A DNA stretch of 64,000 nt from an uncultured Planctomycetales bacterium (GTDB lineage Bacteria > Omnitrophota > Gorgyraeia > Zapsychrales > Fredricksoniimonadaceae). Under the pieces are notes generated by a model, which was not told where the DNA came from, made no database searches, and saw only the letters and a list, made by a program, of their open reading frames with translations. Location of the stretch: positions 47,994 through 111,993 of the forward strand of contig CAYTIW010000002.1 in NCBI GenBank assembly GCA_964438075.1, given 5' to 3'. How positions within the stretch are numbered: position 1 is the stretch's first letter; each line of letters starts with the position of its first letter. This document shows positions 1,088-21,164 of this stretch, piece by piece. A program made the position numbers and the translations under genes.

Positions 1088-1147
1088 TTGAACCTCACTT
1101 GGAAGTATTTGATGTCAGGGAGACAATTTTCAATAATAAATGGGATT

Positions 1148-2167: not shown

Positions 2168-2218
2168 GAACCGATCGGGTGCTAACTGGTGAAAGGGCTT
2201 TGATCCGCCAATTCTTAC

Positions 2219-2698
2219 CTATGAAATGGTTTTGGGCGGCTTACGGTTCAGTTTGGCAAAACCTCCCAGGACTCTTTCTAGCAGATGGCTCCACGATACT
2301 TTGTATGTCTCATCGAAATAGACCGTATCATCCACCTCTACACCGTCCACCTTCTTGATAAGTACTCCCGCAATATATTGTCGGGGGGTATTGGGTGAGA
2401 CTGCGAGCAGGCTGGACCAGCGGACCTCACCTTCCATATAGATTAGGCTTTCTTGTTTAGGAAGGTGCATTTCCATCCACAGATAGTCGCCCGGTTTAAG
2501 CTCTTTGGCAGATTCAAAACAAAGTCCGTTGACGGAGATATTCTTGGAAAAACCTATATAAGTGCGATCCTGCCCCTGTTCTTTTTCCTGATGGACCTGG
2601 AAATCCACTTCGGTCCGGAAATCATAAGCGACCTTGAAAGACACCCGCACATCGGTATCGAAACGAGGAAATTTCCTCTGTATCTGCTCTGTAGCCAT
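2219..2698 (-). CDS. PilZ-domain (c-di-GMP-binding) protein
   Basis: RxxxR motif (QRKFPR) sits near the N-terminus and a downstream (D/N)xSxxG motif (NISVNG) follows, in a 159-aa protein. Confidence 0.6.
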   Translation of the reverse strand: MATEQIQRKFPRFDTDVRVSFKVAYDFRTEVDFQVHQEKEQGQDRTYIGFSKNISVNGLCFESAKELKPGDYLWMEMHLPKQESLIYMEGEVRWSSLLAVSPNTPRQYIAGVLIKKVDGVEVDDTVYFDETYKVSWSHLLERVLGGFAKLNRKPPKTIS

Positions 2699-2795
2699 AA
2701 CCTGCTCCCTAGTTGATCTATATAAAGACGAGATTGATCTTGCCGTTTGATTACAATATGATTATCCTCTTAATCCACGTCGAAGGAAAGAGTTT

Positions 2796-3380
2796 TTATC
2801 CCAAATTGTTTTTCTTTGTCCAATAAATACAACAGTTCTTCACGATCTTTTCTGTTCGTGCGTCCAAGCTCTCGGCATATTTACCGTTCGAATAATGGAT
2901 AATACCTAACGCCGGGACGTTCTCACCGTTTAGTATGTTACGCGGCAAAGGCATCGAAAGCAGCCCCATGTATTTCCCGTAATTGTGGATCGCCTGCAGA
3001 CAAAGATCCCCTCCGCCTTCACTATTGCCGGCTGAGGTGTAAGCGAATAGTTTCTTACCCGCCAATTGCCCTTGGACCCACATACCACCGGTAGAGTCCA
3101 TGAAAGCTTTCATCTCTGCACTGACATTGCCGAAATACGTCGGACTTCCTAAAATGATCAGGTCAGCATCCAAAAGGTCCTGCGGCCTGGCCTCTGGGAC
3201 CGTAAGCATGCTTTCAAGCACTGCCTGGGCCGGTTCCGGCACGTCAGGCTTTCTTACCCAGTCGGAGTCGGCTACCCGACAGATTGCTACCTGGCATGAG
3301 TCAGCCAGGTTCTCCCGGAAAGACCTTGCCACTAGATAACAATTCCCGCAGACGCTGTGAAAAATGATCACGACTTTCAT
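2796..3380 (-). CDS. Flavodoxin-like / NAD(P)H-dependent FMN oxidoreductase family protein
   Basis: N-terminal MKVVIIFHSVCGNCYLVA is a flavodoxin-fold phosphate-binding loop. LIILGSPTYFGNVSAEMKAFMD matches the WrbA/flavodoxin family FMN-binding segment. Confidence 0.6.
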   Translation of the reverse strand: MKVVIIFHSVCGNCYLVARSFRENLADSCQVAICRVADSDWVRKPDVPEPAQAVLESMLTVPEARPQDLLDADLIILGSPTYFGNVSAEMKAFMDSTGGMWVQGQLAGKKLFAYTSAGNSEGGGDLCLQAIHNYGKYMGLLSMPLPRNILNGENVPALGIIHYSNGKYAESLDARTEKIVKNCCIYWTKKNNLG

Positions 3381-3407
3381 GACTTCCTCTTTCTAAAAAA
3401 CAAATGT

Positions 3408-3800
3408 TCAATCGTTCCTTAAGCGGATCTTTACCGTCCCTAGGCTTCGGGCCGTGATCACCCACAGGATGGAATAATAAGGTATTAAAGTAAATACCGC
3501 CAACAGAATAGCCAATCCGGTATTTTGGGTCGTATGTAGCATTGCTGCCAACGTAGCTACAAATAAAACTAAAGGCAGGGCGAAGCTCCACAACACGGCC
3601 TTATTTCCAGGGATGGACTCGATCTGTACTACTACCCTGCGGCCTGGAAAGAGATCCGTTCTTTCTGTGGTCATACACAATACTTTGGATTTGGACGAAG
3701 AGATGTCCGGGGTAGGATTGATCTCTACCCAGACAACTTTGTCCTTGAACGCGGTCACGGTGCCTGAATACTCTTTTGTCGTCCCGGAATTAATTGACAT
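3408..3800 (-). CDS. Small membrane protein, RseC/MucC (SoxR-reducing system)-like architecture
   Basis: 130 aa with a soluble N-terminal beta-rich segment followed by two C-terminal TM helices (AVLWSFALPLVLFVATLAAM and GLAILLAVFTLIPYYSILWVI). The assignment rests on architecture only. Confidence 0.3.
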   Translation of the reverse strand: MSINSGTTKEYSGTVTAFKDKVVWVEINPTPDISSSKSKVLCMTTERTDLFPGRRVVVQIESIPGNKAVLWSFALPLVLFVATLAAMLHTTQNTGLAILLAVFTLIPYYSILWVITARSLGTVKIRLRND

Positions 3801-3961
3801 GCTTGCCCATGGGCTGAACCTTTGAACTGCCTGTCTGAACTATAGGAAAGATCCACAAATCCTGGCTGAATATACTCTTCCTCAATTACAGTGTCAAGCC
3901 AATGAGTTAAAAGATAGCACGTATATAAATCAGAACCACGTTTTGACACCCGGCTCAAAGA

Positions 3962-5995
3962 ATGATAGTATTTTTTCATTCTCGACGTACACTTTTCAGT
4001 AATTTTATAATGGATATTGATAAGCCACCGTTCACATTAAAAGACCTCAAGAACATCCTGATCGGCCGTTCCCGGGATCTGCAGGAAAGAGGTCTTTTCC
4101 ATCATCTTTCACTGATCGCTTTCTTTGCCTGGGTCGGCCTGGGGGCGGACGGTCTCTCCTCATCCTGTTACGGCCCCCAAGAGTCATTTCTGGCATTAGG
4201 AAGCCATACTCATCTCAGCTTGATAGTAGGACTATTAACGGTCGTTACTATTTTTGTCATCAGCGCCAGTTATTCCCAGGTGATCGAGCTCTTCCCTTTC
4301 GGTGGCGGAGGCTACGTGGTGGCGAGCAAACTTCTCTCACCCCATGTCGGCATGATCTCTGGGTGTGCGTTGCTTATAGATTATGTGCTTACCATAACGG
4401 TCTCGGTGGCCAGTGGAGCTGATGCCATATTCAGTTTGCTGCCGATCGAACTCCTGGGACTCAGGCTGCCGTTTGCTTTTGCTGTCTTGATCTTTCTCAT
4501 AATCATGAACTTGCGAGGCGTCAAGGAATCCGTTATTACGATGGTCCCCATCTTCATATTGTTTATCCTGACGCATGCTTTCATAATTATTTTTGGTCTT
4601 TTGACCCATGTTCCGGCGGTACCACAGATTGTTTCCGGGCTCCATTACGACACCGGTGCCACGATAAACGAAATTGGCATCTTTGGTATGATCTTCCTGA
4701 TACTTAAGGCCTACAGCATGGGTGCCGGTACATTCACCGGTATAGAAGCGGTAAGCACCGCTGTGCCTGTGCTGAGAGAGCCTAGGGTCAGGACCGCTAA
4801 GGTCACCATGATCTATATGGCGGTATCACTTTCAATTTTGGTCATGGGCCTTATGGTAGGTTACCTCCTTTTCAACGTATCTTTGGTGGAAGGAAAGACG
4901 CTGAACGCCGTTCTGATGGAACGTGCGACTGCCGGCTGGCCTGCCATATGGTCGCAAGGGTTTGTGCTCATCACACTGGTATCTGAAGCCGCTTTATTGT
5001 TCATAGCGGCCCAGACCGGATTTCTAGGAGGACCCAAAGTGCTGGCCAATATGGCCTTGGACCGGTGGTTCCCCACCCGTTTCTCAGCCATCAGCGATCG
5101 GTTGGTGTCCCAGAACGGAGTTGTCATCATGGGCTGCTCTGCTTTGGTGCTGCTTTTATTAACTCACGGGTCGGTTAAACTCCTGGTTGTGCTCTATGCC
5201 ATCAACGTTTTTATTGATTTCGTTCTTTCACAGACCGGAATGGTCCGTCATTGGTGGAATGAAAGACAGCGTAAACGCTCCTGGAAACGCAAGGCGGCGG
5301 TAAACGGCTCCGGGCTCATTCTCAGCGCATTTATCTTGATTTCGACTGTCACCATAAAGTTCGATGAAGGCGGATGGATGACCCTGGCCGTCACCGGCGC
5401 GCTCATATTGGTGGCCCTTTTTACTAAAAGGCATTACCGCAAGACATCTGTTCTGCTAAAAAGACTGGATACGCTGACCACGGCGGTATCCGAAGAAATG
5501 CTCCGGACGCCCTCCACTTCCGCTCCGGGTTTTGATCCCAAAGGCAAGACCGCGGTTGTTTTCGTCAGTGGGTTTAACGGCATGGGATTGCATACCCTTA
5601 TGAATGTGGTCCGTTTCTTTAAAGGCACTTTCCGGAATTTTGTTTTTGTTCAGGTAGGCATAATTGACGCCGGTAATTTTAAAGGTGAAGCCGAGCTCGA
5701 GCACCTGAAGGACAAGTCTAAAGAGGATATTGAACGCTACGTTTCGTATATGCGATCGCAGGGCTTTTACGCGGAAGGTCATTACGCGGTCGGGGTCGAT
5801 GTGGTCGAGGAAAGCGAGAAGATCTCCCTGGAAATAGCCCAGAAATATCCTGATGCTGTCTTCTTCGGCGGACAACTGGTCTTCCCACACGATTCCTTCA
5901 TAAACCGCCTGTTCCACAACTATACGGTATTTTCCCTGCAGAAGCATCTTTACCGCCAGGGCCTGCTTTTCGTGATCTTGCCTATACGGGTTTAA
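3962..5995 (+). CDS. APC-superfamily permease with a C-terminal cytoplasmic domain (amino-acid/cation transporter, KimA-like possible)
   Basis: Roughly 12 predicted TM helices with APC-type Gly-rich segments (FPFGGGGYVVASK; GFLGGPKVLANMALDRWFP), then a ~200-aa soluble tail. The true start may be the MDIDK codon near 4010. Confidence 0.6.
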   Translation: MIVFFHSRRTLFSNFIMDIDKPPFTLKDLKNILIGRSRDLQERGLFHHLSLIAFFAWVGLGADGLSSSCYGPQESFLALGSHTHLSLIVGLLTVVTIFVISASYSQVIELFPFGGGGYVVASKLLSPHVGMISGCALLIDYVLTITVSVASGADAIFSLLPIELLGLRLPFAFAVLIFLIIMNLRGVKESVITMVPIFILFILTHAFIIIFGLLTHVPAVPQIVSGLHYDTGATINEIGIFGMIFLILKAYSMGAGTFTGIEAVSTAVPVLREPRVRTAKVTMIYMAVSLSILVMGLMVGYLLFNVSLVEGKTLNAVLMERATAGWPAIWSQGFVLITLVSEAALLFIAAQTGFLGGPKVLANMALDRWFPTRFSAISDRLVSQNGVVIMGCSALVLLLLTHGSVKLLVVLYAINVFIDFVLSQTGMVRHWWNERQRKRSWKRKAAVNGSGLILSAFILISTVTIKFDEGGWMTLAVTGALILVALFTKRHYRKTSVLLKRLDTLTTAVSEEMLRTPSTSAPGFDPKGKTAVVFVSGFNGMGLHTLMNVVRFFKGTFRNFVFVQVGIIDAGNFKGEAELEHLKDKSKEDIERYVSYMRSQGFYAEGHYAVGVDVVEESEKISLEIAQKYPDAVFFGGQLVFPHDSFINRLFHNYTVFSLQKHLYRQGLLFVILPIRV

Positions 5996-5997
5996 GT

Positions 5998-6774
5998 TTA
6001 TTCTGAAAAAGTTTGCTGTTCGGGTAATGTCTTACTAGGGGTGAAGGTCCCGGTGAGGATGTGCCTTTTCTTGCCGTGGCCTGGTACTTTTTGGACCAAG
6101 AACCCCTGTTCAGACAGGCCGCGTCGTACAGAACCGGCCACGGTGAAAGTGGAGAACGTTGTGCCGGGCCGGCATAAGTCCTTTAGGGCCTGGAAAACTT
6201 TCTTTGACCACATGGCCGGGTTCTTGGAAGGAGCGAAGCCGTCCAGAAAACAGGCGTCCGCCCCTTCTCCGGCAAGACCATTGCGCTGTATTAACTGCAA
6301 GGCGTTTATGACATCGTCGAAAACGATGGTAAGATGAACACGCCCTCCGGCTAGATACAGATCTTGGACACTACCCGGGTGCGGCGCATAACTGCAGACA
6401 AGCTCATCACGGTAGGGCGTCAACTGCGGCCAAAGCCCCAAGGCCCGGGACATTTGCTCCGGCTTAACCGGGTAAAGTTCCAGGGATATGAAACGCAGCT
6501 TCCATGACGGCGGGGCCTTGGCGTCCCATAGTTGCCAGACGCAGCAGAAATCCAACCCGGTACCAAAACCGGTCTCCACTATGGTAAAAATTCCGGGGTT
6601 TTGTAGAGAAAGCGTTCCGAAACGCTCCGACAGGGCATTGCCATGGCAATTGACATGTACGGCCTCATCGTAGCCGTTATCCTGGCAGAAGTATTTATCG
6701 TCAAATTTGACCGATCGCGGGGCGCCGTTCCGATCCCATTCCAGGTCTGCGTATGGGTTTTCCAGGGGTAACAT
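5998..6774 (-). CDS. tRNA mnm5(s2)U34 methyltransferase domain protein (MnmC N-terminal/DUF752-like, stand-alone)
   Basis: ETGFGTGLDF is a SAM-binding Gly-rich motif. The hallmark FLDGFAPSKNPAMWS...FSTFTVAGSVRRGLSEQGF...GKKRHILTGTF matches the MnmC methyltransferase domain. No FAD-oxidase domain is attached. Confidence 0.55.
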   Translation of the reverse strand: MLPLENPYADLEWDRNGAPRSVKFDDKYFCQDNGYDEAVHVNCHGNALSERFGTLSLQNPGIFTIVETGFGTGLDFCCVWQLWDAKAPPSWKLRFISLELYPVKPEQMSRALGLWPQLTPYRDELVCSYAPHPGSVQDLYLAGGRVHLTIVFDDVINALQLIQRNGLAGEGADACFLDGFAPSKNPAMWSKKVFQALKDLCRPGTTFSTFTVAGSVRRGLSEQGFLVQKVPGHGKKRHILTGTFTPSKTLPEQQTFSE

Positions 6775-7270: not shown

Positions 7271-7978
7271 CTATATTTCCCTTAACCCGTTCCGATCCTG
7301 CAAATAAACTTCCGGGGGGAAGTCGATTGAGCAGTTGGCCTTCTCTGTAAGGAATTTCTCTAAGAAAGATTTTTGGATCTCATCGGCCGGGTCAAATAAG
7401 GGCTTCAAGCTAAGGTCGTTTACCAGCGCGATCACCGGTCCCCGAGCGAATTCAGATTTATTAAGCATGCGCTTTAACAGGGTATAGAGGAAACTGGGCT
7501 TGTCCCTAAATACTTCCACCGCCGTTTCGAAAACAACCTTGCCCCATGATTCTTCCACCATTTTCTGGAGCAGCCCGTAACAGGAAGAATATCTGACCAG
7601 GGCCTGCTCACCTGGTTTGAGCTTCAGCGATGAGTTCACCAGCACTTGGGCGATCTCTTGATAATTGAAAGTTTTGATCTCGCGGTGGAAATCAAAAGTC
7701 AATAGATCAAAGGTATAGATACCGCGCATCCTTTGAGCTGCTACTTTTATTGCGCGATCCAGCAGGTCACGGGCCGATTCCCAAAGGAAGTCCTCATCCC
7801 TGCGGATTATTGTTGCTGTCAAAAGCGTCCACTCCAATCCTTCCCGCACGGCTTTGAAGCGCTGAATCTTATCATCGGCATGCCCTTCGTAATTCAAGGA
7901 CTCGAACTTGGGCAGATGCTGGAACAGGTTGGAACGGTCAAATTCAAGATTGATCAGGTTGAGCGATGGATGTCCCAT
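7271..7978 (-). CDS. Hypothetical protein (235 aa)
   Basis: Long clean ORF with no recognisable motif. It sits between two terminators. Confidence 0.45.
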   Translation of the reverse strand: MGHPSLNLINLEFDRSNLFQHLPKFESLNYEGHADDKIQRFKAVREGLEWTLLTATIIRRDEDFLWESARDLLDRAIKVAAQRMRGIYTFDLLTFDFHREIKTFNYQEIAQVLVNSSLKLKPGEQALVRYSSCYGLLQKMVEESWGKVVFETAVEVFRDKPSFLYTLLKRMLNKSEFARGPVIALVNDLSLKPLFDPADEIQKSFLEKFLTEKANCSIDFPPEVYLQDRNGLREI

Positions 7979-8033
7979 GGGTAGAAAGACAATAGATTAA
8001 GTATAAAATATCATATATCAATGAGGGCTTATG

Positions 8034-8068
8034 AAAAAAGCCCGTTACTTTATATAACGGGCTTTTCC
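8034..8068 (-). terminator. Rho-independent terminator downstream of the ferritin-like gene
   Basis: 10-bp perfect stem AAGCCCGTTA/TAACGGGCTT with a 7-nt loop. An A-run lies on one side and a T-run on the other, so on the minus strand the hairpin is followed by UUUUUU. Confidence 0.6.
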
Positions 8069-8087
8069 ATATCTGAACGGCAAAGGA

Positions 8088-8597
8088 TCATCGTTTGCCC
8101 TGGGACAGGAAATCACTCAGGTCCTCTTCCAAGGACTGGAGGTCTTCTTCATGCTCCACTTCGTCTTGGAGGATCTGAAGTACGATGTTATAAGTAACAG
8201 GATCCTTGTCCGCGGTGAGATCGACCAGAGATTTGTACACGCTTATAGCACATTGCTCGCCTTTTATGTTCTGCATTAACAATTTCTTAACGTGAGGGTC
8301 CTCAGGAGCGTCATAACCACAATGCGATCTCTTAAGCCACTCTTGGGGGGTCAGAAGCGGCGTGCCCCCCAGTTGGATGATACGAAGTGAAAGCATGTCG
8401 GCGTGCCGCAGTTCGTCCGCCGCGTGCTGTGTCAACTCCGCGATGACAGCGTCCTTCATCGGCCCCTTGGCCAATTTGGATCCGAGCCAGTATTGATAAT
8501 AAGCCAACCATTCATCCGCATAGGCCTTGTTGAGAAGATCCAACAGTTTAGGAATATTCATGTTAACGATCGAACGACCTTTTGTCCCCATATTCAC
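8088..8597 (-). CDS. Ferritin-like (bacterioferritin/Dps-like) di-iron domain protein
   Basis: YADEWLAYYQYW...HAADELRHADMLSLRIIQLGGTP...ILQDEVEHEEDL contains E/H ligand spacing (ExxH twice) typical of the ferritin-like four-helix bundle. A GAGGTG RBS precedes the ATG. Confidence 0.5.
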   Translation of the reverse strand: MNMGTKGRSIVNMNIPKLLDLLNKAYADEWLAYYQYWLGSKLAKGPMKDAVIAELTQHAADELRHADMLSLRIIQLGGTPLLTPQEWLKRSHCGYDAPEDPHVKKLLMQNIKGEQCAISVYKSLVDLTADKDPVTYNIVLQILQDEVEHEEDLQSLEEDLSDFLSQGKR

Positions 8598-8831
8598 CTC
8601 ACAAAAATTATCAGTTGATATTATGCAATTTGCCCGATGTTTTTATAGCCAGGACTCGGACTGATCTTTAGCGTACAGAGTAGATTGTATGACTATACCG
8701 GCTTTTGACAATATCTTTTTTAGACCGGTTATGCCCCGCGAACGATTACCACCAGGGATTATAAGTAGGAACTTCGATTTTGTATTTTTTTATTATTTAC
8801 CTATAAAGGGCGAGTTTTCATAAAACGTGAT

Positions 8832-8868
8832 AAAAAAACCGCGCTCAACCGGATGGTCGAACGCGGTT
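8832..8868 (-). terminator. Rho-independent terminator downstream of the 95-aa secreted-protein gene
   Basis: Stem AACCGCG / CGCGGTT flanked by an A7 run; on the minus strand the hairpin is followed by UUUUUUU. Confidence 0.5.
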
Positions 8869-8891
8869 AATTTCCTTCCTGGAATGGCGTG

Positions 8892-9179
8892 TTATTTATC
8901 GGCCTTAGCCTCTTCGACTTTGTTAATCTTAGACTTGGTTGTTACCGGATATGCCGACGCAACAAATCCCGAACCTCGATTTTCCTGAATGCTTTTTTCA
9001 TCTGACAACATCTTCTGCAGCACAGGTTTAGCCACTACTAACGGCATCTGTGAAATAACCTGGGCCTGGGACGTCGTACTGCTTAAAAGGAACGCTGCCA
9101 GAACAATACCAACCACCTGACCCCATAATTTATTTTCCATGGCGTTTCCCCCTGTTTTAACAAATAACCAATGTTCCAT
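8892..9179 (-). CDS. Small secreted hypothetical protein (95 aa)
   Basis: N-terminal signal-peptide-like segment LWGQVVGIVLAAFLLSSTTSQAQV. The rest is a Lys-rich tail. Confidence 0.4.
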   Translation of the reverse strand: MEHWLFVKTGGNAMENKLWGQVVGIVLAAFLLSSTTSQAQVISQMPLVVAKPVLQKMLSDEKSIQENRGSGFVASAYPVTTKSKINKVEEAKADK

Positions 9180-9392
9180 CAGTTATAGTATAACAGAAGA
9201 ATAAGGGGTGCTCGGATGGTATAAAGAAAACATTTTCTTCAAGAAAGGGCTATTCTAACGCAACTCCTTATATCTCAATAGATTATTATTAGAGAAAATC
9301 TGAGAAAATGAAAGCATTTTTTAATATTTTTCGAAACAATCCGAACAAATGCTAAAACCCGCACAAAGAACGAGAAAGGATCGGCAACAAAT

Positions 9393-9866
9393 CTAAATTT
9401 TAAATCTTCGATTTATAATTACCATAATTATTAACCAGATTATCAAAAATAGAAAAGTGATCATTCCTGTTAATAGATATTTTAAGATAGGATGCCATTT
9501 CAAGCGGAAAAGTTTGGCGTTCAGATGTACAGCCAGAACCCCAATAACGCCTCCGATTAAACCACCCATTAAAAGCATCAATATGGGCAAGCACGACCAA
9601 ATATATTGTGCGGTGGTCAAGGGTTTTATAGTCTCGATCACGTCACCATTCTCTAACTCAATATAGGGTATGCCGTCTATAATACTGCCCAGATCGTATT
9701 TGAACTTGATCTCCACTGTTCTACCACTATTATCGCGCAAAATGTACTTGCCACCTTCGCGGGGGAGTTTGACGCCGTTAACATAAAGCTTGGTCCCGGT
9801 CCATAACCCGCCCTTTAAAGTCAAGGTCCTTCCTTCGAAACCCGGAATATTGACTACCACCCCCAT
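9393..9866 (-). CDS. Hypothetical membrane protein (157 aa; N-terminal soluble domain plus 2-3 TM helices)
   Basis: C-terminal half is strongly hydrophobic (LPILMLLMGGLIGGVIGVLAV; LLTGMITFLFLIIWLIIMVII). Confidence 0.4.
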   Translation of the reverse strand: MGVVVNIPGFEGRTLTLKGGLWTGTKLYVNGVKLPREGGKYILRDNSGRTVEIKFKYDLGSIIDGIPYIELENGDVIETIKPLTTAQYIWSCLPILMLLMGGLIGGVIGVLAVHLNAKLFRLKWHPILKYLLTGMITFLFLIIWLIIMVIINRRFKI

Positions 9867-10140: not shown

Positions 10141-10452
10141 TTACATCCCGTATAAACACTGGCAATCGGTTTGTCCAGTTTCAGCATCTACCAAAGCTCC
10201 ATACATACATGTATCATTTGCCTCTTTCGCCTTGAAGAGTATGCCCCAAACGGGCTCAGGTGAATTTAGGTTAACATAATAGTGTCGGCTGTAATATTGA
10301 TTTTTGTACGAGCTGCCCGCTAAGCAATCTTGAGCTATCTTTACTGCTTCCGATCGACTGACTTTTAATTTTCCCTGTAAGCCTACAGTTGCACAAGAAT
10401 AAATGAGGGGCAGAAATAACAGGAAAATAATAATCATATTGTTTTTAGCCAT
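10141..10452 (-). CDS. Small lipoprotein, PepSY-like; candidate immunity protein for the upstream RHS toxin
   Basis: Signal peptide plus a lipobox-like LIYSC. AAGGTGG RBS. The SEAVKIAQDCL stretch is PepSY-like. It lies immediately downstream of the RHS gene on the same strand. Confidence 0.4.
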   Translation of the reverse strand: MAKNNMIIIFLLFLPLIYSCATVGLQGKLKVSRSEAVKIAQDCLAGSSYKNQYYSRHYYVNLNSPEPVWGILFKAKEANDTCMYGALVDAETGQTDCQCLYGM

Positions 10453-10647
10453 GGAATTAAACCACCTTTCTTAGTCTGATGCCTGTTGAATGGCATTAAC
10501 TGGTTTTCGCTGGTCGATAAAACTCTATCCGCAGGATGCGTCCATGTGTGTGCGACCACGAAAAGGGTCACTAAGCAACACATAATTTTTTGTCATTGAT
10601 CAAATGAGGCGGTTGATAATACATATCTGGTGATATTATTATCCTCC

Positions 10648-13600
10648 TCATGGCCTATCAGGATAACCATACACCCTGATACGGCTTGGTGCCTCCCCTC
10701 CGGCGCCATAAATGACACTATTGACTGCAAAATTGCTGTTAAAACTCAAAGCGGAATATTTTGTTTGCCCAGAAAAAGTCATATCATAAAGTTGGATATT
10801 TTCATGCAAAGCGGCAAAATTAACTTCCGCAGAGAACCTCCTGATATAATCACCTGCAAGAGTAATTGATTTCTCGGTACATAAGTGTGTTCCCCATGTT
10901 TCCAGATCGATAACTGTGTTTGTTGTACGCAGAATGCCATTTTCCGGTCCCATCTCCCAACTCCCGTGAGACAATCTACTGGAGACAATGGCCATGTGCC
11001 GGGGGCCGCTTTGACTCCCAGGCTCTCCAGATGCCGACTTCCCCAATGGTCGCGCTACAATATCAACCGTTGTATCTTTACGGTTGACATTCAAGGCATG
11101 CCGAGCGTTCATCTCCCGCGCGAACTGTTTAAAGGCCAGTTCACGATCCGATTGGAATCCCCTTCCGGCCCGATAATTTGAGAATTGTTCGATGTTTGTT
11201 TTTGCTATCCAGTCACCCATCCCCCAGCCTATTACCGCCCCCGCCCAACCGCCTGCGAAACTGTCCCAATTGTCCATCTGAGCGGCGTAAGCCACACTTC
11301 CGGCGAACATGCTCCCCAGAACAAAACCACCTATCATATTATGTGACCCGGAAGCCCAGCCGCCAACACAGCCCAGCACTCCTCCCAGCGCCGCCCCGGT
11401 GATAATCCCGTTACCTTGCGCGCCATTGAGCGCTGCAGTTGTCGCTCCCCCCGCTGCGCCGCCAAGAGCGCCTGCCAGCCAACCTGAAAGACCATAACCG
11501 GCCGGCCCTAGGACTATTCCCAGCGCCACGCCGACGACCGCCCCCGCTGCGCTGTTCAGAAAGCTTTTCCAGTTCCAGCCATAACCCGAAGGGTCAACCA
11601 AACTTACAGGATTGTTCCGGCAATACGAATAGCGGTTCAGGTCCTGCGGGTCGAAAGGATGCTGCACTGTCGGGTCCGCCGTAATGAACCTTCCTAGTTT
11701 GGGATTGTAATAGCGGGCCCCGAAAAAGACAAGCCCAGCCTCGGCATCTATTTTCTTCCCGGTAAAATAGAACCAAGCGACCTTGGGTGATGTGCCGTAC
11801 TTTTCACAGTTCTTGATTTCTCCCCAGGGAGTGAATTCAACTTTTTCCTCGACAAACGACTTCTCGTCGAGCACCAGACTGGTGGACCCCAAATGGTCAC
11901 CGATAAACCAGCGCAAAGTGACTCCGTCGAAAGCTGCGACACGCATGCCGCCGAGAAACAGGTGGTCGATCTCAATACCGTCGCTTTTTTCGTACAGTTC
12001 ACCGACATACGTTGTGGTCACTGCGCTGGCCCCCTTGTTCGAGAAAACGGTCTTCATGGTCCGCCCACCGTCACCGTCGTAGGCATAAGATGCCACCGGG
12101 TAACGTGTGACAGTGCCGGCATCGGTAAACTCCACTTGGACAAGCCTGTTATCAGCGTCGTAGGCGAAATATTGCGTCTTTTCTAATCCGGTCATAACGG
12201 TTAGATTACCGTTGGGGTCATAGGACATGCTGGTCCCGTCAGACAGCGACGTTACTGCATGTGGACCAGAACCGTTCTGTCCGTAGGTATAGACCAGTCT
12301 GCCTTTTTGAAGAAGGTTGCCGGTCTCATCGTAGCGGTAATTAACGACAATACCGTTATCGTTCGATATCACCATTCGGCCCAAAGCGTCGTAAGCGAAG
12401 GTCATGTTAAGGCCCTTTAAATCATCACTCAATTTGACTACATTGCCCACAGGATCATAGTGGTAGCTTTTGGACTGAATGATATTTCCGATAGGGTCTT
12501 TTACGACCTGCCGTAAAAGGCGGGATGTCAACGGGTCATATGAATAAACAACCGTTGTACCGTTGCCGTAATTGAGGGCAGCGATATTGCCGTTGGCAGT
12601 GTAGATGATACCGGTAATGATGTCTTTGGTGGAAGCAACGCTACCGGACATAACCTGAAATTTCAACGTTTTCAACAGTCCCGATGAGGCATCATAGCCG
12701 TAGACAGCTGTACCATTGCCATCCGGGTAAGTCAAGCTAATGATCCTGCCTAAAGCATCATAAGTCCGACTGACCCGGTATGTATCCTGTCCAATAATTT
12801 TGCTGCTCGAGATCTCATCGCCGACGGCATTATAGGTAAAAATGGTCTTGCCAGAGGGATAGTTAACCCCTGTCAGACGTCCGCGTCCGAAATCCGGCGA
12901 TGTGTCGTAGTCGTAGGCGACCAGTTCAAAGCTGCTATCCGAAAGGGTCTTTACGAGTGGGCGTCCCAGGCTATCGAAGGCAAAGGCCACTTGTACACCT
13001 TTAGCGTCGACCTGACTCTTAAGTTGCCCTAGAGGATCGTATTCGTAAATCATTCCGTGCATATCCTGGTCATTCATGGCGGTCTTGCGGCCGAGAGTGT
13101 CGTAAGACATGGACGTGATTTTTCCTTTAGCATCGATGACTTGCGTCAGGTTCCCAGATAAGTCATATACATATTTAGTAGTGGCATAAAGCTGATACGG
13201 CTCGGCAGGATAATAAGAACTGCGGCCGTCCGCCCCTAAATACTCCTCGCGCGCGATTATACGTCCACGCGCATCGACGACGGAACGTTCCTGGTGTCCG
13301 TTGGCATCTATGACGGTCACCCCATGGCTGTCATAATCCCTGGTCTCATAGTTGCCATCCGGGAAATTAATACGGACAGTACGTCCCTGGTCGTCATATG
13401 TATACTTTATCCCCGGACGGGAACTGTTGACGGTGTCTGGAAAGGTCAAAGAGAGGGTGGTAAGAAAGGGTTGGTACGAGGTCTCGAGTGCTCCCCGAGC
13501 GTCGTATGATACTTGGCCGGAAGCTACGTATTTCCCGTTCTCATCGGACTTCGCCTTGGTCATTATGACACGTCCGAGGCCGTCATAGTAGGTATAGCTG

Positions 13601-16600
13601 TCAAGAGTGCCGGGTTGATCATGATTGATCCGGCTTTTTGTCGCGACCACGTAATAACTAGCCCACTGAGCGTACTCCCACGATCTTGTGGGATAGGCAA
13701 AACTGTCCAGCGGAGACACCAAGGATAACGGACGGCCCCAGACATCATAGGTCCGCCATACTTTCTGCTGGTTAGGGTCCACTATAAGTTTCAGCTGGCC
13801 GAAAATTCCTGATCCCTCTGACGTGCTCTCGTTCACGCCATAATACTCGCGGGTCACTTTATGCTTGAGGTCGTTCTCGACCGATACCACGAAAAGCTTA
13901 TAAACGCTGTCCATACTATATCGGGTCTGATGGCCAAGGGCGTCGGTTATGCCCGAAAGGTTCCCGTATTCATCATAGCTGAAGTCTTTGGCGATCCAGC
14001 TTTCCGTTTTATTCAAACTGTTCCAGGTTTCGTTCTTTATGATAAGGCCGTTGGCATCGTAGTTGAACCGGTCTTTACTCAGGTAATTGCCGGATTGATC
14101 AGTGACCACGCTGGCCTGCAACAAGCCCAATATCCAGAAAGAAATATCGTTAGTATATGTTAAGGCAGTGGTCACGCGGTCATCCCCAATATCGTTACCC
14201 GTGTTGAAGTCCACATCGCCGTAATCAATGGTTTTGACCAGGTCACCGAATTTTTCCGTCGTGTTCCATTGATAGATAAAATCTTGTCTGGTACGCCTCC
14301 CGGAAGATCCGGCGTCATATAAAGATTTGTCTATATCAGCCAGGTAGATAAAAGATGAATCGGTAAACCCGTTACCTCGAAAGTATATCGGGAGCCAGTC
14401 CTTTGAATACCAATGATAGTTGGTTCTTTGAAGAAGTTTCCCGTAGCGGTCATAATTGGATACCGTTACCGGACGACCTCGGAAATACACATTGGCCCCG
14501 TTGGTATTGAACGAAGTCTCTATCCGGCCGCCGTAGGCATCTTTAACCGTTGTCCTGGAAAAACCCATAAATTCTCTGGCTGACGGGTCCCATCTCCCCC
14601 CGCTATAGGAATATGAGGTACGGTATACTTCTCCTTGTTTCCATAAAACAGATACCGCTACTTCAGTCACCAGTGGAAGCACAAAAGGCATATTAAGTTG
14701 CTGGAAAGCGGTGGATGGTTGATAGACCACCGATGTTTTTGCGCCCCTTCCATTCTCTAGCGACTTCAGCAGGTCGGGTATCGGACCGGAGCTGTAGGCC
14801 AGTTCAGTGGTCACATTCGAGCCGGCGATATAAGCCATCGCGTCCGTCAGACCGTCTCCGTTATAATCCCCTGGCTGTATCTGGGCGTTGGGATCTTTTA
14901 AGGAAAAGGGCGCTGGCATATCAGAAGCCGGGCCGAAATAGACCGTAATAATACCGCGCCTGATAGAGGGACGGAAAGTGATCTTACCGTTAGGCCAGTC
15001 GTAGTACGCTATATCTGTGCGGCCGTCCTGGTTGAAGTCGGCCAACAACGGATTCCGGTCAGTACCGAAACCGGACTGCACATGGAAAGCGGATCCTCTT
15101 CCGTGCCCGTCTGTGTTCTCGAAAACCACCCAATCCCCGTTGGATCGTTTGAAGGCATAAATGTCCGCCATTTGGTCGGCATTGAAGTCGCCGGTCATGA
15201 CGGCATAGCTGCTGTCACCGTAAGGCAGTGTTTGTACAGGGTCAGCGCTAAAACCATTGGCACGGTTGTTAATCCATATCTGGACCTTTAAAGACGCGTC
15301 GGTCTTCTTTAGAAGGATATCCGTGTAACCGTCACCGTTAAAGTCGCCGGTAGCGATATCAGCGTTCTGCCCCAGTGAGCTGGCCCAGAATCCTTTATCA
15401 AAAAAACTCCGGATAGCGTTGCTCCAGCTGCTGGGCTTGCTCAGCGCGACCCTTAGGCTCCCCGCTGTAATATCATAAGCGGCGATATCGGTGGAACCGT
15501 CACCGTTAAAGTCACCCAGGACGATCTTTTGATTAATGCCGAAATTCCCGATCCAGTTCTGGGGCGGGAGGAATCCCGAGTTACTTGACAAGGCCACTTT
15601 TACATTGCCTGTGTCAGGGTAAAAGGCAGCAGTATCCACTCGCCCATCTCCGTTGAAATCCCCAGCCAGGTTGGAGACTAAAGACATTGTGGAATTCATA
15701 AGATCCACCTTGCTGGCCAGATCGAAACCCAGATCGAAGGTGAAGGATTCATGCTGGTGGTAATCAGTCACTAATATCAGGTTATATCCTGCTACTAGAG
15801 ACAAGGAAGTGCGGTTGACAACACTGGAACCGTTAAGGTATATCCCCCACTCCCCCCCTCCACTCCCAGAAAGCGGAATGGTTTTAGCCTGGTTAACGTA
15901 CACATATGTCCAGCATTGACAGGCCTCATCCTGTCCCGAAGAAAAAGTCAGCCGGCCGTTGTTGTTGATCGACCAGGATACGCCATCCGGGACTGTTCCC
16001 GAGGCTTTGGTATACACCGCACCCATGTCAACATCGAACCCAGGGACCGGGCCGTAGTTCTCATGGCCGCGGTCATAACCAGCTCCGAACTGGCAGTTCC
16101 ACAATTTATCACCCGACGTTTTCGTCGTAGTTACGCTATAGGTGGCCGAGGTCTGGCTGGTGTAGCTGATTTTGAATAATATGCGCGAGGTCGTATTATC
16201 TGAAGCGTATTCCGTGATACTGTTCAGGAATGAACGTCCCGATGTCAGGCTGTTTGAATAAGAAAATTGATATCTCCGCATCCGTATGCCGTTGGCCCTT
16301 ATCGTGAGAGCGGTGATCAGGTTCTTTTCTTTCACTGCAAAACCTGGCCGGTAATCTACAGAATAATTATAAGAATTGCTCGGAGTGACATAACTGGTGA
16401 TGACGTAGGCAAAATTGTTCGTGCTATTCAAGTCGGCAGCGGCGGGGTCCAGTCCGGCTTTCAACACGTAACGGATCTCAAAACTTCCATCAGAATGATA
16501 ATCAATAACATATAAATTGTTCAAACGGTCCGTGACCTTGTCCAGCCGCCATTTGAATACACGGCCGTTGTTTTCGATATTAGAACCTGGGCGGCTACCG

Positions 16601-17073
16601 AAAAAATACGAAACCCCTTTAGGGTCCTGGACGACCCAATAATTTCCCGTATCGATGAATTTAAGCCTGTCCTCCTCCACGCGGGCACGGTATTCATTAG
16701 TGCCGACCTTCACCAGCTCGTAGATCTTTCCGCCTAGGCTGCAAAGGAAGGTATCGTTAGGGCTGTAGGCAGGCACCCCTTTTCTGGTAGAACGAGTTAT
16801 ATAGCCTAGGTCCATGGACCATCCGTTGCCGAAGGGTCCGCTGCCTGATAAGGAAGAATAGGATAGATTAATTGAAGGAGCTATGCCGCGACGTCCTTCG
16901 GGGGTAAAAAGCGGTATGATCGCGCTAGCGCCACCGGTCGATGGGTCGACCGTTATGTTATTAGAAAAAGATTGAGTCTGGGTGTCTGCCCACGAGGGGA
17001 CAGTCAGACCGATCCAGCCGGATACAAATAACATGCCCCCCATGATAAAATTTCTAGTTGCAAACAGTCGCAT
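10648..17073 (-). CDS. Giant secreted SpvB–FG-GAP–RHS/YD-repeat protein (Tc-toxin B/C-fusion-like polymorphic toxin) with C-terminal payload
   Basis: Signal peptide MRLFATRNFIMGGMLFVSGWIGLTVPSWA with an AGGAAAGG RBS; the ORF track's longer N-terminal extension to 17277 is probably not translated. The SpvB-like N-domain contains PSINLSYSSLSGSGPFGNGWSMDLGYITRSTRKGVPAY. Six FG-GAP/VCBS-like repeats follow (GDFNGDGRVDTAAF, GDFNGDGSTDIAAY, GDFNGDGYTDIL, GDFNADQMADIYAF, ADFNQDGRTDIAYY, GDYNGDGLTDAMAY). More than 25 YD/RHS repeats of the YxYDxxGR type come next. The RHS core ends at PVSLVDPSGY, at about 11581. A 310-aa variable C-terminus follows. Confidence 0.8.
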   Translation of the reverse strand: MRLFATRNFIMGGMLFVSGWIGLTVPSWADTQTQSFSNNITVDPSTGGASAIIPLFTPEGRRGIAPSINLSYSSLSGSGPFGNGWSMDLGYITRSTRKGVPAYSPNDTFLCSLGGKIYELVKVGTNEYRARVEEDRLKFIDTGNYWVVQDPKGVSYFFGSRPGSNIENNGRVFKWRLDKVTDRLNNLYVIDYHSDGSFEIRYVLKAGLDPAAADLNSTNNFAYVITSYVTPSNSYNYSVDYRPGFAVKEKNLITALTIRANGIRMRRYQFSYSNSLTSGRSFLNSITEYASDNTTSRILFKISYTSQTSATYSVTTTKTSGDKLWNCQFGAGYDRGHENYGPVPGFDVDMGAVYTKASGTVPDGVSWSINNNGRLTFSSGQDEACQCWTYVYVNQAKTIPLSGSGGGEWGIYLNGSSVVNRTSLSLVAGYNLILVTDYHQHESFTFDLGFDLASKVDLMNSTMSLVSNLAGDFNGDGRVDTAAFYPDTGNVKVALSSNSGFLPPQNWIGNFGINQKIVLGDFNGDGSTDIAAYDITAGSLRVALSKPSSWSNAIRSFFDKGFWASSLGQNADIATGDFNGDGYTDILLKKTDASLKVQIWINNRANGFSADPVQTLPYGDSSYAVMTGDFNADQMADIYAFKRSNGDWVVFENTDGHGRGSAFHVQSGFGTDRNPLLADFNQDGRTDIAYYDWPNGKITFRPSIRRGIITVYFGPASDMPAPFSLKDPNAQIQPGDYNGDGLTDAMAYIAGSNVTTELAYSSGPIPDLLKSLENGRGAKTSVVYQPSTAFQQLNMPFVLPLVTEVAVSVLWKQGEVYRTSYSYSGGRWDPSAREFMGFSRTTVKDAYGGRIETSFNTNGANVYFRGRPVTVSNYDRYGKLLQRTNYHWYSKDWLPIYFRGNGFTDSSFIYLADIDKSLYDAGSSGRRTRQDFIYQWNTTEKFGDLVKTIDYGDVDFNTGNDIGDDRVTTALTYTNDISFWILGLLQASVVTDQSGNYLSKDRFNYDANGLIIKNETWNSLNKTESWIAKDFSYDEYGNLSGITDALGHQTRYSMDSVYKLFVVSVENDLKHKVTREYYGVNESTSEGSGIFGQLKLIVDPNQQKVWRTYDVWGRPLSLVSPLDSFAYPTRSWEYAQWASYYVVATKSRINHDQPGTLDSYTYYDGLGRVIMTKAKSDENGKYVASGQVSYDARGALETSYQPFLTTLSLTFPDTVNSSRPGIKYTYDDQGRTVRINFPDGNYETRDYDSHGVTVIDANGHQERSVVDARGRIIAREEYLGADGRSSYYPAEPYQLYATTKYVYDLSGNLTQVIDAKGKITSMSYDTLGRKTAMNDQDMHGMIYEYDPLGQLKSQVDAKGVQVAFAFDSLGRPLVKTLSDSSFELVAYDYDTSPDFGRGRLTGVNYPSGKTIFTYNAVGDEISSSKIIGQDTYRVSRTYDALGRIISLTYPDGNGTAVYGYDASSGLLKTLKFQVMSGSVASTKDIITGIIYTANGNIAALNYGNGTTVVYSYDPLTSRLLRQVVKDPIGNIIQSKSYHYDPVGNVVKLSDDLKGLNMTFAYDALGRMVISNDNGIVVNYRYDETGNLLQKGRLVYTYGQNGSGPHAVTSLSDGTSMSYDPNGNLTVMTGLEKTQYFAYDADNRLVQVEFTDAGTVTRYPVASYAYDGDGGRTMKTVFSNKGASAVTTTYVGELYEKSDGIEIDHLFLGGMRVAAFDGVTLRWFIGDHLGSTSLVLDEKSFVEEKVEFTPWGEIKNCEKYGTSPKVAWFYFTGKKIDAEAGLVFFGARYYNPKLGRFITADPTVQHPFDPQDLNRYSYCRNNPVSLVDPSGYGWNWKSFLNSAAGAVVGVALGIVLGPAGYGLSGWLAGALGGAAGGATTAALNGAQGNGIITGAALGGVLGCVGGWASGSHNMIGGFVLGSMFAGSVAYAAQMDNWDSFAGGWAGAVIGWGMGDWIAKTNIEQFSNYRAGRGFQSDRELAFKQFAREMNARHALNVNRKDTTVDIVARPLGKSASGEPGSQSGPRHMAIVSSRLSHGSWEMGPENGILRTTNTVIDLETWGTHLCTEKSITLAGDYIRRFSAEVNFAALHENIQLYDMTFSGQTKYSALSFNSNFAVNSVIYGAGGEAPSRIRVYGYPDRP

Positions 17074-17420
17074 AGCATTGCCTTTCCTGTTCATTGAACT
17101 TTTTCCGGCTGGGGGTAACCGTAAGAATCTTGGGGGCCGCATTGCAGGTATCAAAACAACAAATAAACCGCGCCGTCTAGCGGATCGATAGCACATACCG
17201 GGATGTGCTCGGGGGCGGGGATCCAGGTAGGGTTGTAACCGGCGCGGAAAGCCGGGGCATTCGCCAGCCAGGAGCATCCTGGCAATGGAAATTTGTCTAA
17301 GCAGTAATGTCCTGCACGATTATGTCGATGAAATCCGGCGTAATAATTTAATGTTCCAGGTTGATAACCAAATATAGAAAGTCATGAAAACAGGCTTCCC
17401 TTTGCCTGTCAAAGACCCGA

Positions 17421-17514: not shown

Positions 17515-17784
17515 TCACTCAGATTGCGATCTTTGGTAGTGACCGATGACCTGTTCAGAGAACTCTTCGTAAATGCTCGCGTTCTTGCATACGACCTGGT
17601 CGTACCATTTATTGTCTTTGCCCTGTTCCTGCGGCATAGAAACAAAAAGTCCTTTCTTGCCTGACAGCACCCGGATCCCTTTGATAACCAGGGCATCATT
17701 TACCGCCACATCTGCAAATGCCTTCAGGTTGCCTGCGTCTGGAAGGCGGTACATTTTTTCAACTTTAAAATGGATATTTCCCAT
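17515..17784 (-). CDS. spoVG: SpoVG-family protein
   Basis: MGNIHFKVEKMYRLPDAGNLKAFADVAVNDALVIKGIRVLSGKKGLFVSMPQEQ...DQVVCKNASIYEEFSEQVI aligns with the SpoVG signature (RM-AIASI--D-AFVVHDIRVIDG-NGLFVAMPS). The ORF-track N-terminal extension is ignored; the internal ATG at 17782-17784 is used. Confidence 0.7.
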   Translation of the reverse strand: MGNIHFKVEKMYRLPDAGNLKAFADVAVNDALVIKGIRVLSGKKGLFVSMPQEQGKDNKWYDQVVCKNASIYEEFSEQVIGHYQRSQSE

Positions 17785-17962
17785 AACTTCTCCCTTTTGA
17801 TAACCTGATGAATGATCCGGCTCTAACGCTCTAAGGGCGAACGGAAAGCCGGACGGAATACCTGTACCTTTCACTGGCTGTCGATCTATTCCGCCCGGCC
17901 AGACTTATCGGGAACTGACCCGTAACAGGATGGAATAATCCCTGGCGCAGTCCCCTGCTTTC

Positions 17963-20245: not shown

Positions 20246-20797
20246 ATGCGTATAGGCGAACAGGTAAGGAAATTCAGGGAACAGAAAAAGCTGTCACTTA
20301 CAGAATTAGCCCATGCTAGTGGGATACAGATTGCCACACTCTCCAGGATAGAGAACAATAAGATGACCGGGACACTGGAATCACATTTAGCCATAGCCAA
20401 GGCCATGGGTATCGAGCTAACGGACCTTTACCTGAACCTGCAGCAAGAAGAACCCGTTTCGGCGCATGTTGATGACGCCACTGCTGAACCTCTCCCCGTC
20501 TCTGACGGCAAATGCTCGCTGGAAATACTAGCCCGGCAGGTCGCGTCCAAAAAGATGCTCCCTGCGCTCATCAAGATAGAGCCCAGGAGTTCGACTGCTG
20601 TCGAGATCTTACCCGCCGGCGGAGAACGTTTCGTATATGTTCTCGAGGGGACGGTGGAAATAAAGCTTAAATCACAGGTCATACAGCTTTCCTCCAACAC
20701 ATCCTTGTATTTCAACGCAAACCAGCCGCATAATATAGAGAACAATACCGACTTGCCGGCTAGGATAATTTCTGTATCCACACCGGTGGTCATATAG
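20246..20797 (+). CDS. XRE-family HTH transcriptional regulator with C-terminal cupin domain
   Basis: N-terminal helix-turn-helix QKKLSLTELAHASGIQIATLSRIENNK. The C-terminal beta-rich segment GGERFVYVLEGTVEI...PHNIEN is cupin-like. Confidence 0.75.
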   Translation: MRIGEQVRKFREQKKLSLTELAHASGIQIATLSRIENNKMTGTLESHLAIAKAMGIELTDLYLNLQQEEPVSAHVDDATAEPLPVSDGKCSLEILARQVASKKMLPALIKIEPRSSTAVEILPAGGERFVYVLEGTVEIKLKSQVIQLSSNTSLYFNANQPHNIENNTDLPARIISVSTPVVI

Positions 20798-20804
20798 CCA
20801 CCCC

Positions 20805-21164
20805 ATGAAACCAGCCATCCTTATCGGTAACAACCAAGAAGAGACAGCGGAACAGTTAAAATCTATATTGTCCTACACCTTCCCGCTGATCGTAGTGACG
20901 GATGGAGATCAATGCCTGGCGGCACTGAAGCAAGGATCCTCGATCGGACTGGCCTTTGTCGGGTCTGACATTGATCTATCCGGTCAATTGTTCGAAAAGA
21001 TGCGGGAGCTAAGCCCCCGGCTGACCATAATAGCCATCGGAGAAGCTGGATCAGAAGGGGGAGCAGTTGAGGCGGTAAGTCGAGGCGCGAACGGTTATAT
21101 CATGCTGCCACTTCGCAATAATGACGTAATGTCACTGGCCCAAAAATATGCCTTTCCGGCATAA
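20805..21164 (+). CDS. Receiver (REC)-like single-domain protein, atypical
   Basis: CheY-like beta-alpha layout. A candidate phospho-acceptor Asp sits in LAFVGSDIDL, but the conserved Lys of the KP motif is missing (the position reads MLPL). Confidence 0.35.
   Translation: MKPAILIGNNQEETAEQLKSILSYTFPLIVVTDGDQCLAALKQGSSIGLAFVGSDIDLSGQLFEKMRELSPRLTIIAIGEAGSEGGAVEAVSRGANGYIMLPLRNNDVMSLAQKYAFPA

Follow-up and report, generated by a model that had tools for sequence, protein, structure and literature searches.

A candidate envelope-acting hydrolase toxin behind a shared glycine-zipper module in an Rhs protein of Omnitrophota

For Rhs and TcC proteins it is well established that the C-terminal tail is released by autoproteolysis inside the cocoon which the protein itself forms. 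In a different kind of system, the Tae amidases of type VI secretion systems (T6SS), a papain-superfamily hydrolase is brought to the periplasm of a rival and is neutralised by an exported Tai protein. The gene described here would combine features known from both. It lies on the minus strand of a stretch of 64,000 nucleotides (the window) from contig CAYTIW010000002.1 of assembly GCA_964438075.1, and it encodes an Rhs protein with a C-terminal tail of 310 residues. The reading we prefer, and to which we give about an even chance of being correct, is that the tail belongs to a TcB/TcC-like Rhs cocoon exported by Sec and used against other bacteria, and that it is a Ser/His hydrolase toxin, anchored in the membrane and active on the envelope, with a PepSY-like immunity protein. 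What is new is an unannotated family of toxin domains, nearly confined to Omnitrophota and comprising 131 clusters (50% identity), and with it a likely immunity family and a constant zipper delivery module, which follows the cleavage site of the Rhs protein and precedes the variable toxin. The parts of the locus are the following.

10648-17277, minus strand: the Rhs/YD-shell toxin gene, whose longest open reading frame (ORF) has 2209 residues, from the ORF list and its translation
16987-17073, minus strand: predicted signal peptide of Sec type, MRLFATRNFIMGGMLFVSGWIGLTVPSWA, with DTQ after it, read by eye and with the cleavage site placed without a predictor
11581-11832, minus strand: Rhs-associated core (TIGR03696) that closes with DPSGY, where aspartyl autoproteolysis is predicted
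11197-11580, minus strand: glycine-zipper module, tail residues 1-128, which begins with GWNWKSF, continues with about five Gly/Ala-rich helices of transmembrane length and ends with DSFAGG...GDWIAKT
11101-11196, minus strand: conserved junction NIEQFSNYRAGRGFQSDRE... and a helix, the last portion of the constant module, recognised by a motif common to proteins with differing downstream domains
10651-11100, minus strand: the variable warhead, here named the NSN domain, ORF residues 2060-2209, a predicted alpha/beta domain of 150 residues (AlphaFold2) which belongs to no curated family
10996-10998, minus strand: codon of His2094, present in 53/53 sequences, on domain strand 34-39, the proposed general base
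10954-10956, minus strand: codon of Glu2108 in the W-E-M-G-P strand (Glu in 48/53, Asp in 3, Gln in 2), the proposed third residue of a triad
10732-10740, minus strand: Asn2180-Ser2181-Asn2182 (Asn in 51/53, Ser in 47/53, Asn in 53/53), with Ser as the proposed nucleophile
10141-10452, minus strand: candidate immunity gene for an exported protein of 103 residues (hydrophobic N-terminus, LIYSC) with a PepSY-like pattern, found with a family hidden Markov model (HMM)

The probable start of the Rhs gene is Met69 at position 17073, with GGAAAGG upstream of it; this gives a protein of 2141 residues and matches the public gene calls. Matches to Pfam are SpvB (residues 112-265), four FG-GAP repeats and TcdB_toxin_midN (797-925). 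The RHS repeats are recognised by PF05593 (E 8.9e-40 across 10 stretches) and by TIGR01643 (E 2e-25), and the NCBIfam model TIGR03696 for the Rhs-associated core covers residues 1816-1898 (E 1.3e-21), ending ...VDPSGY at residue 1899. Judged by these matches the architecture is that of a TcB/TcC-like fused Rhs cocoon. The tail behind DPSGY occupies 10651-11580 and is followed by the stop codon at 10648-10650. It is a genuine and well-delimited feature, and the kind of system is an ordinary one, an Rhs polymorphic toxin with its immunity gene.

A distal module of about 180 residues and without any family match had been noticed in a first-pass annotation made from the sequence alone. The module is real and conserved, with 131 representatives (clusters at 50% identity) in a profile search, 22 of them below 1e-30, but the autonomous domain is shorter, about 150 residues (10651-11100); homologues which stand alone begin at about tail residue 170, at the first strand of the domain. 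Six relatives were found among 5.8 billion clusters, with E down to 1.5e-64. The lack of a family match held: nothing reached threshold in Pfam, NCBIfam, PADLOC or the PDB sequences. All of the longer carriers that were scanned have RHS or YD-shell repeats except one, P0052, in which nothing was detected. A scan of genomes, made with a 7-sequence alignment because a larger one of 53 sequences was too diverse, gave 14 loci with an NSN domain, 13 in Omnitrophota and one in Elusimicrobia.

Altogether 61 full-length members of the family were aligned, and the 53-sequence alignment (A4) was used for the structural model and for all column counts. Besides the residues listed above, conservation is highest at G2110 (53/53), R2076 (52/53), Y2174 (52/53) and T2134 (49/53). 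Ser2181 is kept in all 47 copies carried by Rhs proteins and is substituted only in exported stand-alone forms. The catalytic candidates proposed at first, in the motifs SHGSWE and THLCTE, are not conserved (H2104 in 7/53, H2131 in 18/53, C2133 in fewer than 3/53). The more general suggestion that the tail may carry a novel enzymatic toxin domain would fit with an unannotated family in which one His is invariant and a Ser at the N-terminus of a helix nearly so. One Omnitrophota locus (L009) carries the NSN-type toxin three times (2-4597, 5059-6471 and 7797-9209) with a PepSY-like gene behind each copy, which is a typical orphan toxin/immunity array.

The gene behind the toxin is informative about where the toxin acts. 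To look for immunity genes we used the 14 genome loci and an Omnitrophota contig (L001, GCA_028688215.1). With the window included, a PepSY-like family stands behind the NSN toxin in 11/15 loci and has 15 copies, and L009 contributes three toxin/immunity pairs. In the genome loci and L001 the members have 120-135 residues and a signal peptide or a lipobox, usually start within about 20 nucleotides of the toxin, and share the motif DLSDGV(S/N)KEEAIIIAQNYLI...W.V.F.A...VDKKTGEI. We searched the 800 ORFs that the window contains from stop to stop with an HMM of 12 members, from which the window ORF was excluded; the sole match (E 1.7e-4) was 10144-10470 on the minus strand, which corresponds to the 103-residue ORF at 10141-10452 with the Shine-Dalgarno-like AAAGGTGG upstream of its ATG. 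A helix followed by strands gives this protein a pattern that hints at a resemblance to PepSY; with the PepSY model PF03413 itself the window ORF scores 12.2 bits (E 0.23) against a cutoff of 24 bits, and only 2/13 family members match at E<=1.

Loci without the PepSY-like family likewise encode exported proteins. Behind the two most divergent NSN toxins lies a different exported protein of about 310 residues (L014 623-1591, L015 6258-7184), and the two such proteins are 39% identical to each other; they may be a second immunity family. Where the same zipper carries other warheads, the downstream gene codes for a protein with four transmembrane helices (L021), a lipoprotein (L022) or a protein with a signal peptide (L023). 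The immunity candidates thus change with the warhead, which would locate the specific toxicity in the distal domain, and since they are exported or membrane-embedded and never cytosolic, the site of action would be outside the cytoplasm, in the periplasm or the membrane. Judged from these genes the payload very probably acts there, in agreement with the first-pass annotation; in most related loci, as in the window, a gene for a signal-peptide protein or lipoprotein follows the toxin.

Another small ORF, 9393-9866 on the minus strand, lies two genes after the toxin and encodes 157 residues, of which the N-terminal half is soluble and the C-terminal part has transmembrane helices. It is called as a gene in other assemblies of the same locus and has no family match. 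As an immunity gene it was rejected, having no family support. A scan for promoters and terminators in the gap between toxin and immunity gene gave nothing above shuffled sequences.

The zipper which precedes the warhead is equally distinct. Tail residues 6-102, 97 residues in all, contain no Asp, Glu, Lys or Arg, and the first 135 residues of the tail are 24% Gly and 18% Ala. The run of GxxxG repeats seen behind DPSGY at the outset is non-random, with 16 occurrences against 7.6±2.1 in 5000 composition-preserving shuffles (p=6e-4) and a density about 15 times that of the remaining Rhs protein. An AlphaFold2 model of the whole tail, made from 7 sequences, was poor (predicted local distance difference test score, pLDDT, 54.7); with this low confidence it places helices at tail residues 4-23, 33-51, 57-76, 82-101 and 108-128. 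The Pfam glycine-zipper models PF13441, PF13436 and PF05433 do not match the tail of the window at E<=1, and homologous tails match them with E 7e-4 to 0.04, under threshold. A motif rich in Trp, x-W-x-W-K-x-F, opens every glycine-zipper tail right behind DPxG[YH]; in the window it reads GWNWKSF (11560-11580 on the minus strand), and it is also present in L021-L023. This motif may be an interfacial anchor.

In the first-pass annotation the zipper counted as part of the payload, and a charged linker (NIEQFSNYRAGRGFQSD...) separated it from the distal module. The profile search altered both points. Many proteins match only the zipper and the segment DSFAGG...EQFxN(Y/F/W)(R/K)xGxGFxS and continue with unrelated domains; the supposed linker is the conserved junction of the shared N-terminal module and no spacer, and its motif EQFxN(Y/F/W)(R/K)xGxGFxS is common to proteins whose downstream domains differ. 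The alternative tips found after the zipper are of HExxH type, JAB-like (E..HxH..S..D), lipase-like with HSEGT, papain-like with NC/DC, or purely hydrophobic, and none of them matches Pfam. Six Rhs homologues (P0077, P0102, P0108, P0115, P0119, P0132) align with the window protein beyond residue 1899, to residues 1932-2086, and then diverge into HExxH, JAB-like, HSEGT-type or hydrophobic domains. Since the alignment with related Omnitrophota Rhs proteins whose C-terminal domains are different runs on beyond DPSGY and across the zipper, the zipper and junction (11101-11580) are, on this alignment evidence, a constant pre-toxin module and not the specific toxin.

A SpoVG gene (17515-17874, minus strand) lies upstream of the Rhs gene, and an HTH_3-Cupin_2 gene paired with a response regulator is found nearby (20246-21164, plus strand). 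Both recur beside homologous Rhs genes with different tips (L022, L023, L024), and it looks as if these Rhs genes occupy a conserved chromosomal slot in which the tip is replaced.

For the NSN domain a model of much better quality was obtained from the 53 sequences (pLDDT 92.5, predicted template modelling score 0.88). In domain numbering the predicted elements are a strand 10-18, a strand 34-39 with His35, a strand 47-53 with Glu49-Met-Gly51, a strand 56-59, a helix 70-81, a strand 87-93, a helix 95-108, Tyr115, and Asn121-Ser122-Asn123 opening the helix 122-132. The only Pfam family matched by more than one member is PF05903 (PPPDE, Peptidase_C97), with matches in 4/53 sequences and a best E of 0.001; these always span profile positions of about 54-125. 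When A4 was compared by hhalign with human DESI1, the query being identical in sequence to PDB 3EBQ, P was 0.012; with a profile of DESI1 orthologues P was 0.005 at a probability of 7%, and since that profile holds close vertebrate orthologues only it added little power. The N-S-N motif is placed on N-C108-N of DESI1. In the extended (greedy) alignment only, with P=0.005 and a probability of 7%, His35 (H2094) also falls on His38 of DESI1 and W-E-M-G on E-F-F-F-G. The LRAT/PLAAT3 group as nearest relative was set aside: PLAAT3, the query being verified against 4FA0, gives the same alignment pattern but P=0.13. The top Foldseek match in the PDB, with E not below 1, is Aichivirus 2A, an LRAT-like H-box/NC protein. 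Homology to the warhead extends, with an hhalign probability of 95% and E 3.5e-8, to a sister clade (P0049, P0097, P0075, P0061), which has R-N-Cys at the position of N-Ser-N, as read by eye just past the end of the profile alignments. Serine-based papain-like families have been documented, namely DUF3750, DUF2145, DUF2272, menin and APC5867 (PMC10318531).

The profile signals point weakly but consistently to the permuted papain/NlpC-P60 group, to PPPDE and LRAT, and on that basis we read the warhead as a divergent, putative serine-type member of this circularly permuted group that stands outside formal PPPDE membership: where PPPDE proteins have the catalytic Cys of N-C-N, Ser2181 occupies the aligned position. 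Many DESI1/PPPDE orthologues (P0136-P0255) are named palmitoyl-protein hydrolase in UniRef, a hint that acyl (thio)esters, besides isopeptides, can be substrates of PPPDE-type scaffolds; this bears on any guess at the substrate.

The mechanism we propose is as follows. Autoproteolysis at DPSGY would produce the 310-residue fragment, carried within the cocoon. The first ~160 residues of the tail, the part shared among different toxins, would insert in the target membrane and tether the following domain at its periplasmic face. The warhead would be a hydrolase on a permuted papain/NlpC-P60-type scaffold, most like PPPDE, in which Ser2181 serves as nucleophile, His2094 as base and Glu2108 as the third residue, and the bond it cleaves may be an amide or an ester in some component of the envelope, for instance a peptidoglycan peptide, a lipoprotein or a phospholipid. 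The producer would be protected through binding by the exported PepSY-like protein, the gene of which lies 196 nucleotides downstream. A bolder version can be formulated, in which the zipper is a universal self-inserting plug that lets the Sec-exported cocoon plant interchangeable periplasm-acting enzymes in the membrane of a neighbour, one of them a true serine-nucleophile enzyme on the permuted papain scaffold, and in which exported paralogues with Glu or Asp in place of the Ser act as decoy immunity proteins beside the PepSY-like inhibitor. We consider this version speculative and unlikely.

Several observations weigh against the hydrolase reading. Foldseek gave no match with E<1 for the core model, confident as the model is, against PDB or BFVD, and 3EBQ and 2WP7 are outside the top 50 matches. 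The unknown fold of the first-pass annotation is thus half right: it agrees with Foldseek, but the sub-threshold profile signals do point to PPPDE/LRAT and thereby to the permuted papain group. All of these PPPDE and LRAT links are under curated or conventional thresholds: the relatives that match PF05903 reach 14.3-18.6 bits where the gathering threshold is 29.2, and the domain of the window does not match it at E<=1. The immunity candidate of the window is divergent (19-27% identity) and lies 196 nucleotides downstream of the toxin, against 10-20 in most other loci. It should also be noted that exported stand-alone paralogues exist in which Ser is replaced by Glu or Asp (NEN/NDN) while all other conserved residues are kept (L001 764-1291; L002 6633-7127; P0017, a lipoprotein; P0020, P0024, P0029, P0036, P0048, P0086). 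Such retention would be odd if these residues served only Ser catalysis, and this makes the Ser-nucleophile model less certain. Two of the paralogues sit directly behind NSN-type Rhs toxin genes; among the ORFs of the window an NEN-type paralogue was looked for and is absent. As to their role, the paralogues might serve as decoys for immunity, represent ancestral housekeeping forms, or be enzymes of different chemistry.

The other explanations start from different parts of the tail. Killing could be done by the zipper itself, forming a pore or depolarising the membrane like Tse5-CT or EsxX, and the 150-residue domain would then be an accessory for receptor binding, oligomerisation or regulation. 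The strong GxxxG enrichment and the 97 uncharged residues speak for this, there is precedent both for toxins with glycine zippers and, in Tse5, for a pore former carried by an Rhs protein, and in L021 the zipper is followed only by hydrophobic helices and then by the gene for the four-helix membrane protein. However, the same zipper is common to tails with at least five unrelated downstream domains, and in the distal domain one His never varies and a Ser/Asn motif, of the kind seen at active sites, hardly does. This domain is also found without any zipper, as an exported stand-alone protein. The neighbouring immunity candidates vary with the downstream domain and not with the zipper, and because of this co-variation we disfavour the pore former and regard it as unlikely. 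The distal domain could on the other hand be a non-catalytic binding module or a pseudoenzyme, for instance one that binds a ligand or the cell wall, its conserved residues being structural or used for binding. Here support comes from the Glu/Asp paralogues, with everything else retained, and from the absence of significant matches to enzyme families or structures. Against it stand the position of the domain at the tip of a polymorphic toxin with a dedicated, co-varying exported protein downstream, the Ser present in every one of the 47 Rhs-borne copies and replaced only in exported stand-alone forms, and the Cys found at the same site in the sister clade; we find a binding module distinctly unlikely.

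Two further possibilities concern the place of action. A GxxxG module before the enzyme domain is required for translocation of Tde1 (PMC10240207), and in the same way the zipper could carry the enzyme across the inner membrane of the target, so that the domain acts in the cytoplasm. The immunity candidates of the NSN toxin have signal peptides or lipoboxes, however, and those of three other zipper toxins have signal peptides, lipoboxes or several transmembrane helices; none looks cytosolic, and we assign little probability to this route. The tail could also be the hypervariable region of a Tc-type (ABC) toxin directed against eukaryotic cells, and SpvB, the FG-GAP propeller, TcdB_mid and RHS do match a TcB-TcC fusion. 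But no TcA-type Pfam domain was found among the flanking and other large ORFs of the window that were scanned, the Rhs protein has a signal peptide of its own, and the conserved downstream gene of immunity type and the orphan toxin/immunity arrays (L009) are hallmarks of interbacterial polymorphic toxins. This alternative has hardly any probability in our estimate.

The surroundings of the locus are chromosomal, with genes for IF-2, NusA, PurA, SerA and Dxr in the window. The NusA protein falls in a cluster at >=90% identity of which every named member comes from an Omnitrophota metagenome-assembled genome. Upstream of the Rhs locus, on the minus strand, are a protein of 1833 residues with five CARDB stretches and Ig/PKD-type domains (25576-31077) and one of 1389 residues (21213-25382) with a C-terminal GNAT acetyltransferase as its sole Pfam match. 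A full-length serpin (PF00079, E 2e-111) is encoded in the same segment at 61541-62758, minus strand.

A predatory or epibiotic way of life is suspected for Omnitrophota. Should the Ser/His chemistry prove true, the NSN domain would show that nature has selected, as a weapon, a papain-type scaffold with serine as its nucleophile, and it would offer a way to study attacks by uncultured Omnitrophota on the cells around them.

Compared with the Rhs/YD polymorphic toxins of E. coli and Dickeya and with WapA of B. subtilis, the system has the same RHS repeats, the core ending in DPxG, variable C-termini at one chromosomal slot, an adjacent small gene of immunity type and orphan toxin/immunity arrays. 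It differs in its N-terminus, which is a Sec signal with SpvB/FG-GAP/TcdB-mid and is not linked to PAAR or VgrG, and in the variable boundary, which lies about 130-190 residues after DPxG behind the constant zipper module. With the TcB-TcC cocoons (Photorhabdus TcdB2-TccC3, Yersinia YenB/YenC) it shares SpvB, a beta-propeller, the TcdB middle part, the RHS shell and, presumably, an autoproteolytically released cargo, but a TcA is lacking among the scanned neighbours of the gene, a signal peptide is part of the protein itself, a candidate bacterial immunity gene is present, and the host belongs to Omnitrophota. Tse5, an Rhs effector of P. aeruginosa, and Tde1 also bear a hydrophobic GxxxG segment for the target membrane, as would be the case here, and in Tde1 the zipper precedes the enzyme domain in the same order. 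The likeness is one of organisation, and no sequence similarity was seen, although no comparison aimed at it was made; moreover both are T6SS substrates, Tse5-CT is without a globular enzyme domain, and Tde1 is a DNase of the target cytoplasm.

At the level of the warhead, PPPDE/DeSI (PF05903; 3EBQ, 2WP7) and the LRAT/PLAAT/H-box-NC proteins may share with the NSN domain its predicted order of a strand, a His-strand, an acidic strand, a strand, a helix and Y-x5-N-[C/S]-N at a helix N-terminus, and the NSN domain differs from them by Ser in place of the catalytic Cys and by the extra helix 70-81. The families of PMC10318531 resemble it in having a conserved Ser for the papain-type Cys beside the remaining active-site residues; it does not match their Pfam models at E<=1, none of them is a polymorphic-toxin tip, and activity is likewise putative there. 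A functional parallel to what we propose is found in the NlpC/P60-type Tae amidases and their periplasmic Tai partners, where a papain-superfamily hydrolase for the rival periplasm is paired with exported immunity. Tae proteins have the canonical, non-permuted Cys-His fold without a membrane module and their immunity families are unrelated, whereas the toxin described here would combine a permuted Ser/His scaffold, a membrane-anchoring zipper and a PepSY-like partner.

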